Source: an uncultured Leptospiraceae bacterium | GTDB taxonomy: Bacteria > Spirochaetota > Leptospiria > Leptospirales > Leptonemataceae | DNA: 46,942 bases | Direction: 5' to 3' | Assembly: GCA_964619995.1 (NCBI GenBank) | Contig: CAZUJO010000001.1 | Span: 1 to 46,942, forward strand | In this document: in pieces, positions 29,472 to 38,665 of the stretch | How the letters are laid out: every line of letters begins with the position of its first letter | Numbering within the stretch: position 1 is the first letter of the stretch | Position numbers and translations under genes: made by a program | The notes under the pieces: model-generated | Seen by the model: only the letters and a program-made list of their open reading frames with translations | Database searches by the model: none | What the model was told of the DNA's origin: nothing

Positions 29472-32400
29472 ATGGCAATTCGCATAGCTCTGCATCATCG
29501 AACTTCGTACGAGTACGACAAACCAGTGACCGTCTTCCCTCATGCGGTGCGCCTGCGTCCGGCCGTGCATGCGAAGACACCCATTCTCTCGTATTCGTTC
29601 CGCAGCGATCCGGCAGATCATTTCATCAACTGGCAGCAGGATCCTTTCGGAAACTACGTGGCGCGCCTTGTTTTCCCCGAGAAGACCAACCGCCTCACAT
29701 TCGAGGTGGATCTGATCGCTGATCTTCAGCCGACCAATCCGTTTGATTTCTTTCTAGAGCCGGCGGCCGAAGAGTTTCCGTTCACATACGACCCCGCATT
29801 GAAGCAGCAGCTTGCGCCGTATCTTGTCCTCAAAGAAGGCGGGGCCTTGCTGCGTTATTATATAGAGAAAAGCCGCCGTAAACAGAAGACCATTGACTTC
29901 ATCGTCGAGCTGAATCAGCAGATTCGGTCCGATGTTTCCTACGTGATTCGCATGGAACCGGGCGTTCAGACATGCGAAGAGACTCTGCAAAAGAAAAGCG
30001 GTTCCTGCCGCGACTCAGCGTTTCTCCTGGTTCAGGTACTGCGCGGCCTGGGTCTTGCGGCAAGGTTTGTCTCTGGATACTTAATCCAGTTGAAGCCGGA
30101 CGAAATTCCACTGCACGGTCCCCTGGGACCGCCGGAGGATTTTACCGATCTGCACGCCTGGGCTGAAGTTTATCTTCCGGGAGCCGGATGGATCGGGCTG
30201 GATGCGACTTCCGGTCTGCTTACAGCTGAAGGCCACATTCCTCTTGCTTGCGCGCCAGAGCCGGAGGATGCCGCTGCGGTGATTGGTGCGGTTGAGAAAG
30301 CGGACGCGCGTCTGGAATTTGAAATGCGCGTGGAGCGGGTCTTCGAAACACCGCGCGTGACCCTGCCATATTCGAACGACCAGTGGTCGTCTATCCTCGA
30401 ACTCGGCCGGCGGGTTGATGATGATTTGATGGCGAATAACGTCCGATTGACGTCAGGCGGCGAGCCAACGTTTGTTTCTGAGACCAACCGTGACGCCCCT
30501 GAGTGGAATACGGACGCGAATGGAGCCGACAAACGCGAAAAGGCCCGGCGGCTGGCGCTTGCTCTCCGCAGCCGTTTCGCGCCGAATGCTTCGTTTCATT
30601 CGGGTCAGGGAAAATGGTATCCGGGCGAAGAGCTTCCGCGCTGGGCTTTCGCAGCATTTTTCCGCAAAGATGGACAGCCCCTCTGGAGGGATACGAGCCT
30701 TCTCGCGGATGAGATGCGCGACTATCGCTTCGGAACGACAGAGGCGCGAATGTTTGCCGAGTCTCTCGCGATGCGAATGGTAGGCACTGCCGATACGATC
30801 GTGCCGGGTTACGAAGACGTTTACTATTATCTCTGGAAAGAGGGCAATCTGCCCGGTGACGTCGACCCGATGCGCAAAGATCTGAACTCGGCTTCCGAAA
30901 GAAACCGACTGCGCATGCTTCTTGAACGAGGACTCGGAAGCATTACGGGCTATGCTCTGCCTCTTAGTTTTGACTGGTCTGCGCAGGCCTGGACGACGGG
31001 CCGATGGCATTTCCGCCGCGAGCGCATGTATTTGATTCCGGGCGATTCGGCGATGGGCTATCGTCTGCCGCTCGACCGGCTCGGAGGAATCGATACAGGC
31101 CAGGTTGAATTGTCGCCCCTGGAAAAACGTCCGCCGCTGCCCGATCTCAGAGAGCGCACGAAGCGCCGCGCACAGGCCATGCTGATCTCGAACGGCCCCG
31201 AACATCACGCACAGACGCAGGTTCCGATGTACCATATGCGCACGGCCGTGTGCATTGAGCCGCGCGACGGGCGCTTGTGGGTGTTTCTGCCGCCGCAGTG
31301 GGACGCTTCTGCTTACGTGGATTTGATTGCAAGCATTGAGGATACTGCTGCGGAACTGCAGATGCCCGTTCTCATTGAAGGCTACGAGCCGCCGTCAGAT
31401 TCACGGATCGGGCGCATTGCTGTGACGCCCGATCCCGGCGTGATTGAAGTCAACATACATCCGTCAGCCTCTTTCGAAGAGCATGCTCAGAAGCTTGAAA
31501 TTCTGCACCATGAAGCGCGCGCCTGTGGATTGACCGCCGAGAAATTCCTGCTCGATGGACGCCGTGCAGGGACTGGAGGAGGAAATCATATTACGCTGGG
31601 CGGCGAACATCCTTCCGACAGCCCCTTCTTGAGACGCCCCGATCTGCTTCGCAGCCTGATCACTCATTTTCAACGTCATCCGGCATTGTCCTACTTCTTC
31701 TCCGGTCAGTTTATTGGAGCCACAAGCCAGTCTCCCCGGATTGACGAAACAAATCCAGAAAGCCTTTATGAACTTGCGCTGGCCTTCACGCAGCTGCCCG
31801 CATCTGCCGCCCTGATGGAAGGCAGCTATCGTCCATGGCTTGTAGACCGACTCCTTCGCAGCCTTCTCGTCGACCAGACCGGCAACACACATCGGGCTGA
31901 GATCAGCATCGATAAGCTGCATTCGTCAGACTCTCTTTCTGGGAGGCTCGGTCTGGTAGAATTCCGCGGTTTTGAAATGCAGCCGCATGCTCGAATGAAT
32001 TCGCTTCAGCATCTGCTGATGCGCGCGCTGGTTGCGCGGTTCTGGAAATCTCCCCTTCGCGAGGGACCCGTAGACTGGGGTTTCATGCTGCGCGACAAAT
32101 TCAGACTCCCCCACTATCTCTGGGAAGATTTACGCGGCGTGCTTGCAGACCTTCGTGCGTCCGGCTATAATTTCCAGGAAGAATGGTTTCTGCCCTTCCT
32201 GGAATCAAGGTTTCCGAGCTACGGGGAGGCACAGGCCGGCGAATGCACGGTTCAGCTGCGCCTTGCCCTGGAAGCGTGGCAGGTGCTGGGCGAAGAGATG
32301 ACCGCCGTGGGAACCGCGCGCGCGGTGGATTCCGCCGTGGAGAGACTGCAGGTTTCCGTATCGCACTTTCATCCGGACCGTTATGCGCTTTTCTGCAATG

Positions 32401-32747
32401 GCCGCCCGGTTCCTCTGCAGAGCACTGCGACGACAGGACTCTTTGTGGCGGGCGTTCGCTACAAAGCATGGAACCCTCCGCGCACCATGCATCCTTCGCT
32501 TCCCGTGAACACTCCTCTGAGTTTTGATTTGTTCGATCGCGCCTCCGGCTCCTTCGTGGGCGGCTGCACCTACCATGTGTTTCATCCGGGCGGCCGCAGC
32601 TACGACACGCTGCCCGTGAACGATCGGGAAGCAGAGTCGCGCATGTTGTCGCGGTTTTTGCCCGGCACTCAGTTCCCGCCTGTCATCCGTCATCAGGAGG
32701 AAAACCCTGATTACCCTTGCACTCTGGATCTGAGGACACCGGTCTGA
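29472..32747 (+). CDS. Large transglutaminase-like protein (Bact_transglu_N plus transglutaminase core plus long DUF2126-like C-terminal region)
   Basis: The start MAIRIALHHRTSYEYD is the typical family N-terminus; ATG 29454 is an alternative start. Core residues: SGSCRDSAFLL (Cys codon 30006..30008), DLHAWAEVYLPGAGWIGLDATSG. Confidence 0.88.
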   Translation: MAIRIALHHRTSYEYDKPVTVFPHAVRLRPAVHAKTPILSYSFRSDPADHFINWQQDPFGNYVARLVFPEKTNRLTFEVDLIADLQPTNPFDFFLEPAAEEFPFTYDPALKQQLAPYLVLKEGGALLRYYIEKSRRKQKTIDFIVELNQQIRSDVSYVIRMEPGVQTCEETLQKKSGSCRDSAFLLVQVLRGLGLAARFVSGYLIQLKPDEIPLHGPLGPPEDFTDLHAWAEVYLPGAGWIGLDATSGLLTAEGHIPLACAPEPEDAAAVIGAVEKADARLEFEMRVERVFETPRVTLPYSNDQWSSILELGRRVDDDLMANNVRLTSGGEPTFVSETNRDAPEWNTDANGADKREKARRLALALRSRFAPNASFHSGQGKWYPGEELPRWAFAAFFRKDGQPLWRDTSLLADEMRDYRFGTTEARMFAESLAMRMVGTADTIVPGYEDVYYYLWKEGNLPGDVDPMRKDLNSASERNRLRMLLERGLGSITGYALPLSFDWSAQAWTTGRWHFRRERMYLIPGDSAMGYRLPLDRLGGIDTGQVELSPLEKRPPLPDLRERTKRRAQAMLISNGPEHHAQTQVPMYHMRTAVCIEPRDGRLWVFLPPQWDASAYVDLIASIEDTAAELQMPVLIEGYEPPSDSRIGRIAVTPDPGVIEVNIHPSASFEEHAQKLEILHHEARACGLTAEKFLLDGRRAGTGGGNHITLGGEHPSDSPFLRRPDLLRSLITHFQRHPALSYFFSGQFIGATSQSPRIDETNPESLYELALAFTQLPASAALMEGSYRPWLVDRLLRSLLVDQTGNTHRAEISIDKLHSSDSLSGRLGLVEFRGFEMQPHARMNSLQHLLMRALVARFWKSPLREGPVDWGFMLRDKFRLPHYLWEDLRGVLADLRASGYNFQEEWFLPFLESRFPSYGEAQAGECTVQLRLALEAWQVLGEEMTAVGTARAVDSAVERLQVSVSHFHPDRYALFCNGRPVPLQSTATTGLFVAGVRYKAWNPPRTMHPSLPVNTPLSFDLFDRASGSFVGGCTYHVFHPGGRSYDTLPVNDREAESRMLSRFLPGTQFPPVIRHQEENPDYPCTLDLRTPV

Positions 32748-37676: not shown

Positions 37677-38665
37677 GCAGATCCGCGGATTCGGTCTACT
37701 GGCTGAACCGCTACATTGAGCGCGCCGAAAACTATGCGCGCTTTCTCGATGTGAACATGCAGCTGGCCCTCGATCTATCCGAGGGCGCGCAATGGATGCC
37801 GCTCGTCGAAACAACCGGAGACCGCGAGCAGTTCACGGCGGAATACGGCGAGGCAAACCCGGAGAACGTCATTCGCTTTCTTGTAGCGGATGAAAAGAAT
37901 CCGAACTCGATCCTGTCGTGCATTCGTGCGGCGCGCGAGAATGCGCGTTCGGTGCGCGAGATGATTTCAACTGAGATGTGGATGCACATCAATCGTTTTT
38001 ATCTGACTCTCGAGGAAAGTCTGACTCCGAGAGCGAAAATTCCTAACTATTCCGAATTCCTGGCGTGGGTGAAAGATTCCTGCGCACTGCACGCGGGTCT
38101 GATGGACGGTTCTCTTTCGCACACAGAAGCGTGGCATTTCGGCACAATCGGCCGGTGCGTGGAACGCGCCGACAAAACATCGCGCCTGCTCGATATCAAA
38201 TACTTCTACCTGTTGCCCGCTCCGGATCAGGTCGGGTCCGACGTAGACTTGCTGCAGTGGCAGGCCGTGCTGCGAAGCGCGAGCGCACTCGAAATGTTCC
38301 GCCGTTCGCGGCCTCGCATCACGCCGTCGAGCGTTGCAGAGTTCTTGATCCTGGATCCAGATTTTCCCCGTTCGATCCGATTCTGCGTAAGCGAAGCGGA
38401 GCGGTCCTTGCGCGAGCTTACGGCTGCGGGAACGGGCGCGTTTCGCAATCAGGCGGAAAAGAAGATCGGGGCATTTCGCGCGCAGCTGGAATTTACGGAC
38501 ATTGACGACATCTTCTCGCATGGCCTGCATGAGTATCTCGACCTGATTGAACTGAAGCTGAATGAAATCGGACGCGCAATCCAGACTGTGTTTCTGGTTC
38601 CTCCCGATGCAGCGCAGATGCGCCTGGTGGACGCGGCGCTGCCGCATATGCAGCAGCAACAATAA
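37670..38665 (+). CDS. Alpha-E domain protein (stand-alone)
   Basis: The N-terminus [29 protein letters not shown] is the family signature. There is an ATGCTGA overlap with the ATP-grasp stop. Confidence 0.88.
   Translation: [331 protein letters not shown]

Follow-up and report, generated by a model that had tools for sequence, protein, structure and literature searches.

A five-gene cluster of ATP-grasp, alpha-E and transglutaminase-like proteins with candidate sigma-54 promoters in a leptospiral genome

The five-gene cluster

Five co-oriented genes coding for ATP-grasp, alpha-E and transglutaminase-like proteins lie side by side in the DNA of an uncultured Leptospiraceae bacterium (Leptonemataceae in the GTDB lineage; contig CAZUJO010000001.1, assembly GCA_964619995.1). 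The whole stretch of DNA analysed, hereafter called the window, measures 46,942 nucleotides (nt). The genes are called G1 to G5, and are listed in Table 1. Their products belong to families from which Iyer, Abhiman, Burroughs and Aravind predicted in 2009 a ligase-peptidase system (PMC6376114, PMC5666114, PMC3495828). In the published outline of that prediction, the ATP-grasp enzyme ligates peptide tags, and the transglutaminase-like peptidase reverses the ligation. The locus is a well-preserved instance of this known, widespread and predicted system, whose function is not solved by the window. The genes would form one conserved cluster made of two transcription units, G1-G2-G3 and G4-G5, each with its own sigma-54 (-24/-12) promoter. 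Both units appear, from the motifs found upstream, to carry promoters of this type, which were overlooked in an initial annotation made from the sequence alone.

Table 1. Genes and other features of the cluster (positions in the window)
Feature	Position	Strand	Description
P1	29420..29435	+	candidate sigma-54 (-24/-12) promoter, cGGCACataaaTTGCA, upstream of G1
G1	29472..32747	+	Bact_transglu_N and Transglut_core (Cys-His-Asp) fused to DUF2126
G2	32751..35213	+	circularly permuted ATP-grasp (residues ~18-480) fused to alpha-E (~500-805)
G3	35195..36079	+	small transglutaminase-like protein, Bact_transglu_N and core, GTG start
Hairpin	36082..36100	+	weak hairpin, AAGCA-GTT-TGCTT, with TTTAT behind it (seen by direct reading)
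P2	36177..36192	+	candidate sigma-54 (-24/-12) promoter, TGGTACGGACCTTGCT, at the 5' end of G4
G4	36204..37676	+	stand-alone circularly permuted ATP-grasp (probable start; longest reading frame from TTG 36156)
G5	37670..38665	+	stand-alone alpha-E protein

All five open reading frames (ORFs) described initially on the plus strand are present, and Pfam searches agreed with the family assigned to each product, every match being full-length. G1 matched Bact_transglu_N (E 4.9e-24), Transglut_core (E 7.2e-18) and DUF2126, the latter with 1136 bits over positions 1-826 of an 826-position profile. G2 matched CP_ATPgrasp_2 (E 4.5e-140) and Alpha-E (E 4.8e-68), G3 Bact_transglu_N (E 1.1e-26) and Transglut_core (E 1.2e-18), G4 CP_ATPgrasp_2 (E 4.7e-164), G5 Alpha-E (E 1.5e-104). 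The CP_ATPgrasp_2 profile is covered end to end in both G2 and G4. None of the NCBIfam models matched any of the five proteins, and an exact-sequence look-up of G2 returned no record.

Genes within each unit are tightly packed. Read from the sequence, the junctions are those first described: 3 nt separate G1 from G2, the GTG start of G3 lies 19 nt inside G2, and the start of G5 overlaps the stop of G4 in the heptanucleotide ATGCTGA. The longest ORF of G1 opens at ATG 29454; the N-terminus conserved among homologues corresponds to the seventh residue (M7) of this frame, that is to ATG 29472, in agreement with the start chosen before. The start of G4, formerly set at TTG 36156, is more probably ATG 36204, because a conserved -24/-12 element fills positions 36177-36192. 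With this start the distance between G3 and G4 increases from the 76 nt originally reported to ~124 nt.

The region between the two units contains the weak hairpin and T-rich tract already described. Its stem (36082-36094) has 5 pairs only, 2 of them G-C, and falls below the threshold of a simple terminator scan; the element is a possible weak terminator located after G3. Scans for terminators and for sigma-70 promoters gave no more matches than were obtained in shuffled sequence. A sigma-70-like match at 29441-29468 was dismissed, as its transcription start would fall after ATG 29472.

No conserved small ORF, which may code for a precursor or a tag, was found in the leaders, and the intergenic regions are unconserved outside the promoter blocks. 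The initial annotation had reported both leaders as devoid of precursor ORFs and had viewed this as unusual. The observation holds for conserved ORFs; the second leader features a 48-codon ORF starting with TTG (36089-36235), and the lack of a precursor gene is the rule in these clusters. Apart from the promoter block, the second leader is not conserved in relatives. An Rfam scan of region 28000-39500, at E values up to 1, retrieved nothing, and hence no glutamine or other riboswitch.

Conservation of the enzymes

The Cys, His and Asp contexts quoted in the past for G1 and G3 are present in both proteins, and align with each other. In G1, residues C185, H234 and D250 are invariant in 32 homologues; in G3, residues C185, H227 and D243 are conserved in 100% of 76 orthologues. 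At the sequence level the catalytic Cys-His-Asp residues are thus confirmed as intact in both proteins. The transglutaminase domains of G1 and G3 are 26% identical to each other. G1 is 53-76% identical to many homologues across phyla. G3 matched in the Protein Data Bank (PDB) the transglutaminase-like structure 3ISR (E 3.4e-12) and the protein cross-linking enzyme Tgl (6G49; E 9.4e-8).

DUF2126 is described in Pfam as a putative amidoligase. Accordingly, the DUF2126 part of G1 is predicted to be a glutamine-synthetase-like carboxylate-amine ligase, a feature overlooked in the initial annotation. The cluster therefore has three predicted ATP-dependent carboxylate-amine ligases and two thiol hydrolases. 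The AlphaFold model of G1 has a mean predicted local distance difference test (pLDDT) score of 69.5, with well-predicted cores at residues ~310-470, 600-700 and 850-940. In Foldseek searches the model matched 3ISR (E 2e-7), and gave weak but consistent matches to glutamine synthetases, YbdK/GCS2 (1TT4) and gamma-glutamylmethylamide synthetase (GmaS), with probability 0.75-0.99, E 0.01-0.3, and template-modelling (TM) scores of ~0.25-0.39. Residues E337, E392, E602, R604, E665, H712, H813-R814, R838 and E841 of the DUF2126 part are invariant in 32 sequences. When a profile of G1 homologues was compared to PDB sequences, the transglutaminase part alone was matched, the DUF2126 part was not. No internal repeat was found in DUF2126, hhalign comparisons among three segments giving probabilities <1%. 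A full-text search of the literature for the term DUF2126 retrieved no match.

G2 matched the PDB structure 3N6X (E 5.8e-82). For G2, the scored homologues of identical architecture make up nearly 8000 clusters at 90% identity, and the number for G1 is similar. ATP-grasp domains of fused (G2) and stand-alone (G4) type share 40 residues conserved at ≥97% over both clades, and all 40 are kept in G2 and G4. With the ATP-grasp part of G2, G4 shares 33-34% identity; with stand-alone ATP-grasps of other phyla it shares 59-64%, the cyanobacterial and Nitrospira copies being at 59%. Similarly, G5 has 29% identity with the alpha-E portion of G2, compared with 52-57% for homologues from cyanobacteria, Nitrospira and planctomycetes. 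Fused and stand-alone proteins are reciprocally monophyletic in a neighbour-joining tree built from 117 ATP-grasp domains. Mean identity is 51% among fused domains, 60% among stand-alone ones, and 36% from one clade to the other. The two modules had been proposed to be paralogous, and a phylogeny had been suggested as a check; tree and identities point to ancient paralogy. Local duplication of the ATP-grasp genes is ruled out by the same data.

Two ER motifs are invariant in the alpha-E part of G2 (E516-R517 and E665-R666) as in G5 (E17-R18 and E165-R166). The AlphaFold model of G5 is confident and all-alpha (pLDDT 86.5, predicted TM score 0.85), and had no meaningful match among PDB folds (best E 0.35), so that no function can be derived from the fold. 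On the evidence of the model, alpha-E remains an orphan, apparently all-helical fold.

Organization of the cluster in other bacteria

Loci homologous to the cluster were collected with a profile of G2 homologues, keeping one genome per species. The survey includes 80 loci, taken from many phyla, which had the highest scores among at least 597 matches (single loci are denoted below by the letter L and a number). Their ORFs were classified using the domains found in the window as queries, and gene orders were counted in the 50 loci having adequate flanks. A G3 homologue directly follows G2 in 49 of the 50 loci, and G1 is present in 38. A stand-alone ATP-grasp and alpha-E pair resides within 10 kb of the fused module in 26 loci. 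All five genes are found together in 24 loci, which span the Leptospirales, Poribacteria, Verrucomicrobiota, Acidobacteriota, Acidimicrobiales and Gammaproteobacteria. The same counts for G3 and for the complete set support the co-conservation of these families across phyla, as initially proposed. The commonest order, pair-G1-G2-G3, was observed in 18 loci, including loci from Leptospira, Leptonemataceae, Poribacteria, Verrucomicrobiota, Acidobacteriota, Acidimicrobiales and Cellvibrionales. The order G1-G2-G3-pair of the window is found again within its clade, as well as in L017 and L049. Two features considered unusual in the initial annotation turned out to be common: fused and split versions are neighbours in about half of the loci, and a split pair lacking its own transglutaminase gene is typical of most five-gene clusters. 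In Mycobacterium tuberculosis the two types are presumably represented by Rv2566-Rv2569c (fused) and Rv2409c-Rv2411c (split), which are two separate loci there, whereas the modules are adjacent in the window.

Pairs of stand-alone ATP-grasp and alpha-E genes reside also on their own. A bare pair, whose alpha-E protein is a close homologue of G5, was found in a cyanobacterium (L087), and in Nitrospira (L088) the pair is followed by a gene for the proteasome homologue Anbu only. The existence of bare and Anbu-only pairs indicates that the ATP-grasp/alpha-E pair is the conserved core, and that transglutaminase and Anbu are accessories. Anbu, searched by BLAST, adjoins the cluster in 11 sampled loci, and nothing else recurs downstream in a Pfam survey of ~240 flanking genes. 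None of the ORFs of the window was matched by BLAST with the Nitrospira Anbu protein.

The two units of the window could be regarded as independent paralogous systems lying side by side, G4-G5 being the remnant of a canonical ATP-grasp/alpha-E/transglutaminase/Anbu operon, with no joint function. Bare pairs elsewhere speak for such independence, as does the absence of any pair within 10 kb in half of the G1-G3 loci sampled. Moreover, the units are ~6 kb apart, with unrelated genes between them, in L005 and L006, the pair is found on the opposite strand or further off in L024, L061, L062, L075 and L084, and each unit of the window has a separate promoter motif. However, the units are adjacent in 26 of 50 loci over distant phyla, 21 times on the same strand and often a few nt from G1 or G3, and adjacency is kept despite lineage-specific gene orders, in which the pair is located either upstream or downstream. 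The promoter motifs, in addition, are of the same type. Independence of the two units is thus viewed as improbable.

Some loci feature additional or rearranged genes. An extra transglutaminase (29-32% identical to G3), Anbu, or both, are found near the cluster in Methylobacter and a few others (L061 14383-15982; L062 13501-14295 and 20214-21077; L075 14490-15245; L030 13506-14327). The extra, distant transglutaminase and Anbu resemble the canonical partners of the split pair, which are missing in the window. In L031, from Leptonemataceae, homologues of G1 and G2 are contained in a single stop-free frame of ~1930 codons (6653-12454); this is either a real fusion, which would functionally link the two proteins, or an assembly frameshift. 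In L005 (13548-19374), and similarly in L006, the ~6 kb separating the G3 and G4 homologues contain seven minus-strand ORFs without Pfam matches, and both units of the split cluster still keep sigma-54-like motifs. ORFs of ~1150 codons lie directly 3' of G3 in some Acidobacteriota, Verrucomicrobiota and deltaproteobacterial loci (L067 13588-17109; L071 13418-16867; L074 13348-16773); the one in L067 has a transglutaminase-like match.

Candidate sigma-54 promoters

Sequences resembling sigma-54 promoters, a type employed by genes of nitrogen starvation, precede both units. P1 reads cGGCAC-ataaa-TTGCA, with the GG at 29421-22 and the GC at 29433-34. Its predicted transcription start (~29446) leaves a leader of ~26 nt before ATG 29472. 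P1 and P2 differ each by 1 mismatch from TGGCAC-N5-TTGCW, and have GG and GC 10 nt apart. The motif GGYAC-N5-TTGCW has exactly two matches on the two strands of the window, against 0.19 expected, and these are P1 and P2.

Upstream regions of the window were aligned to those of three relatives, whose G2 proteins are 80%, 70% and 62% identical. At P1, GG(C/T)AC-N5-TTGC is the only invariant block of the four-way alignment. At P2, GGTACG-N4-TTGC is invariant in the four clade members, the surrounding sequence is not. An in-frame G4 ATG is located 11-12 nt after the -12 GC of P2 in 4 of 4 spirochaete clade members (window 36177-36206; L001 13441-13470; L004 13393-13422; L005 19440-19468). The transcription start predicted for P2 (~36203) coincides with the G4 ATG, and a leaderless transcript is therefore implied; G4 would be translated from a leaderless or nearly leaderless sigma-54 transcript.

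The same type of motif marks cluster heads in other phyla. The 80 loci were scanned for sequences with at most 2 mismatches in the 330 nt upstream of each gene. Of 33 stand-alone ATP-grasp genes, 19 have a motif upstream (11 at ≤1 mismatch), and so do 11 of 51 G1 genes, all 11 heading the cluster. None was found upstream of genes internal to the cluster, as G2 (0/80) and stand-alone alpha-E genes (0/32). Flanking genes, used as controls, gave 16 matches in 248 cases at ≤2 mismatches, and 4 in 248 at ≤1; relative to these, motifs are enriched at cluster heads (Fisher p = 1e-11, 1e-8 and 0.002). Two of the 4 control matches sit upstream of glnK and amtB, which validates the scan.

Other sequence elements were noted. 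A perfect 7-bp inverted repeat, GTCTGGA-N5-TCCAGAC, occupies 29290-29308 within the 3' end of a CcmH-like ORF, and precedes the -24 element of P1 by 112 nt; nothing similar is present upstream of G4. The distance suits a site for an enhancer-binding protein, and the repeat may also have arisen by chance. A third sigma-54-like match, TGGCACCTTTCTTGCC, differing at one position, lies at ~9929-9944 on the minus strand, inside the coding region of a hybrid histidine kinase gene (8711-11377, minus strand), and is probably a chance match.

Link to nitrogen limitation

Genes for ammonium transport and its control recur next to the cluster. The glnK-amtB pair is located directly upstream in L005 and L006, and in L048, L051 and L066, three loci of the Cellvibrionales type. 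The 62%-identical relative has amtB and a P-II gene immediately before G1, in the same orientation and with a sigma-54 motif of their own. In a set of ~120 upstream neighbours, no Pfam families other than Ammonium_transp and P-II recur.

Clusters homologous to this one are among the genes most strongly induced by nitrogen limitation, and their induction depends on NtrC and sigma-54 (PMC5491218, PMC7801951, PMC8050072, PMC3235984). In Pseudomonas putida, PP_2685-88 ranks with the operons that nitrogen limitation induces most strongly, an effect attributed to NtrB/NtrC. In Burkholderia cenocepacia H111, I35_5080-5083 (BCAM1233-1236) belong to the genes whose expression in nitrogen limitation relies most on NtrC and sigma-54 (PMC5491218). 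A table of the Bradyrhizobium RpoN regulon includes one CP_ATPgrasp_1 gene with a -24/-12 motif. In Leptospira, RpoN and EbpA control amtB and growth under low nitrogen. In marine metagenomes, the abundance of the domains found in the cluster correlates with that of urea-metabolism domains. The initial annotation held that no substrate or phenotype was established for these genes. As for the substrate this still applies to any organism; as for expression, the statement is outdated by the induction data.

Two of these clusters can be compared with the window directly. The Anbu operons of P. putida (PP_2688-PP_2685) and Yersinia bercovieri have the order ATP-grasp, alpha-E, transglutaminase, Anbu. 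G4 and G5 belong to the same stand-alone ATP-grasp/alpha-E clade, G4 being 59% identical to the Nitrospira copy that has Anbu next to it, and the NtrC-mediated induction of the P. putida operon fits the sigma-54 motif in the window. In contrast to these operons, neither transglutaminase nor Anbu follows G5. The B. cenocepacia cluster includes an ATP-grasp (DUF404/407), an alpha-E (DUF403), a transglutaminase-like and a large transglutaminase-like protein. Likened by its gene descriptions, it offers the nearest experimental parallel to the regulation that we propose. It differs from the window in having four genes, and no reported fusion of ATP-grasp and alpha-E.

Proposed function

If each unit is placed behind a sigma-54 promoter, an enhancer-binding activator most likely turns on the cluster when nitrogen is limiting. 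The ATP-grasp/alpha-E units and DUF2126 would activate a carboxylate as acyl phosphate, and would then join, as ligases, an amino acid or a short peptide to a peptide or protein substrate. Alpha-E would be the obligatory partner of each ATP-grasp, perhaps involved in substrate binding. The transglutaminase-like proteins, as papain-fold enzymes of the Cys-His-Asp type, would hydrolyse, trim or reverse amide or isopeptide bonds. The physiological role would be nitrogen economy, through tagging and turnover of proteins and peptides in starvation. We consider this reading, a nitrogen-limitation-type and sigma-54-controlled system for the reversible amide or isopeptide ligation of peptides and proteins, to have about an even chance of being correct. 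The general notion of a ligase-peptidase system making and trimming an amide-linked product, put forward in the initial annotation, agrees with the 2009 prediction as outlined. The initial interpretation was hence right in kind, and its claims of unusualness were not.

The locus shares with the predicted system, as published in outline, the domain set, the tight operon coupling, the Cys-His-Asp triads, and the association with DUF2126. It is an instance of that system which combines fused and split versions, and lacks Anbu. Peptide tagging is favoured by the published prediction, by the adjacency of Anbu in the sampled loci, and by the match of G3 to Tgl. The ATP-grasp encoded by the Y. bercovieri operon was found to release phosphate from ATP.

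Several results weigh against the proposed reading. No substrate, product or tag is established in any organism. Purified Anbu had no peptidase activity, and no stable complexes were detected among the proteins of the operon, which is non-essential. The window contains no Anbu, no unfoldase, and no conserved small ORF able to serve as a tag. The match of DUF2126 to glutamine-synthetase-like folds is weak (E 0.01-0.3, TM ~0.3), and was obtained with a model of moderate quality (pLDDT 69.5). About 40% of the sampled cluster heads have no recognisable motif at ≤2 mismatches. P1 and P2 are motif predictions, from which we infer sigma-54 dependence in the organism of the window; neither rpoN nor a gene for an enhancer-binding protein was found within the 47-kb window, and no activator site common to the regions upstream of P1 and P2 was detected. 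Frequencies calculated from the 80 loci are biased, because these are the best-scoring ones in a larger set. The nature of the substrate, finally, and the direction in which the transglutaminase-like reaction would run, are inferred as well.

The main alternative to the proposed reading is a small-molecule pathway. Ligases might join glutamate, or another amino acid, to a small amine, or build an amide conjugate or storage compound, to be released by the thiol amidases for nitrogen scavenging or buffering. Gamma-glutamylation routes (PuuA/PuuD, GmaS) and glutathionylspermidine synthetase/amidase are known parallels. Best ligase matches of the DUF2126 model include gamma-glutamylmethylamide synthetase, 1-naphthylamine-specific glutamine synthetase and YbdK, and 3N6X, the only solved structure of a circularly permuted ATP-grasp, was deposited as 'putative glutathionylspermidine synthase'. 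The fusion of a ligase to a papain-fold amidase in G1 mirrors glutathionylspermidine synthetase/amidase. Nitrogen regulation (Ntr) regulons consist mostly of scavenging enzymes, the metagenomic correlation is with urea metabolism, and a tag ORF is missing. However, neither transporters nor other metabolic enzymes are recurrent neighbours of the cluster, the transglutaminase-like relatives of known activity act on proteins or peptides, and the association with the proteasome homologue Anbu is frequent. Furthermore, in a 2026 preprint in which Rv2567 and Rv2411c were treated as ATP-binding candidate ligases, lysates made no gamma-aminobutyrate (GABA)-trehalose, the sole small-molecule product tested. 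A small-molecule pathway is possible, and on the whole rather unlikely.

ATP-grasp ligases and cysteine peptidases occur also in gene clusters for ribosomally synthesized and post-translationally modified peptides (RiPPs), and many uncharacterised multi-enzyme clusters proved to be defence systems. The cluster, however, lacks a conserved precursor ORF, and no exporter or immunity gene is recurrent beside it. In a PADLOC search none of the five proteins was matched at E ≤0.01. Identities of 50-60% across phyla, the housekeeping-like distribution and a chromosomal context of signalling and metabolism genes argue in the same direction. A graspetide-like RiPP cluster, or an anti-phage defence cluster, is very hard to reconcile with these data.

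Ligation reversed by a dedicated enzyme has analogues, in mechanism alone, in the Pup ligase PafA with the depupylase Dop and the proteasome, and in glutathionylspermidine synthetase/amidase, where an ATP-dependent carboxylate-amine ligase likewise has a partner enzyme that undoes the amide bond it makes. The fold of PafA and Dop is glutamine-synthetase-like, which is also the prediction for DUF2126; in glutathionylspermidine synthetase/amidase a papain-fold amidase is fused to a ligase, as in G1. In contrast to the Pup system, the window has no Pup-like gene, AAA+ unfoldase or 20S proteasome, and ATP-grasp enzymes are unrelated to PafA. A bolder version of the proposed reading is that the cluster is a single sigma-54-controlled nitrogen-starvation machine, in which three ligases and two thiol amidases carry out reversible pupylation-like tagging, with a leaderless ATP-grasp/alpha-E transcript in this spirochaete lineage. 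We hold this version to be speculative, and unlikely to be correct in full; if true, pupylation-like tagging by ATP-grasp/alpha-E enzymes would be far more widespread than Pup.

Chromosomal context

Metagenome-assembled genomes bearing the labels Leptospiraceae, Leptospirales or Spirochaetia are the nearest named relatives, with 67-80% protein identity, and synteny with the 80%-identical relatives reaches across both flanks of the cluster. The rest of the window is ordinary chromosome, coding for many PAS, histidine-kinase and GGDEF-EAL proteins, a release factor, a lipoate ligase and a fatty-acid desaturase, among others. A convergent gene for a SpoIIE-type phosphatase, and no transglutaminase gene, is found next to G5. 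In 80%-identical relatives, a P-II-like gene and a 110-residue fragment of Sbt_1 (bicarbonate transporter) are located between the CcmH-like gene and G1 (L001 5749-6438; also L002, L003, L089 and L090). Both are missing in the window at 29395-29471, so that G1 directly follows the CcmH-like gene. A chemotaxis cluster (CheA-CheW fusion, PAS-containing methyl-accepting chemotaxis protein, CheB, CheR), unrelated to the five-gene cluster, is found at 478-6854, and is followed by several PAS, histidine-kinase and response-regulator genes.

Significance

The gene set described here is among the most widespread bacterial enzyme systems still without a function, and Anbu, a partner resembling the proteasome, has a place in discussions of how the proteasome originated. 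To the existing picture the analysis adds a recurrent five-gene unit, the ATP-grasp/alpha-E pair as its core, and sigma-54-type promoters, predicted from motifs, at cluster heads well beyond the Proteobacteria. The results direct experiments to nitrogen-limited conditions, and to handling the five genes as one system.

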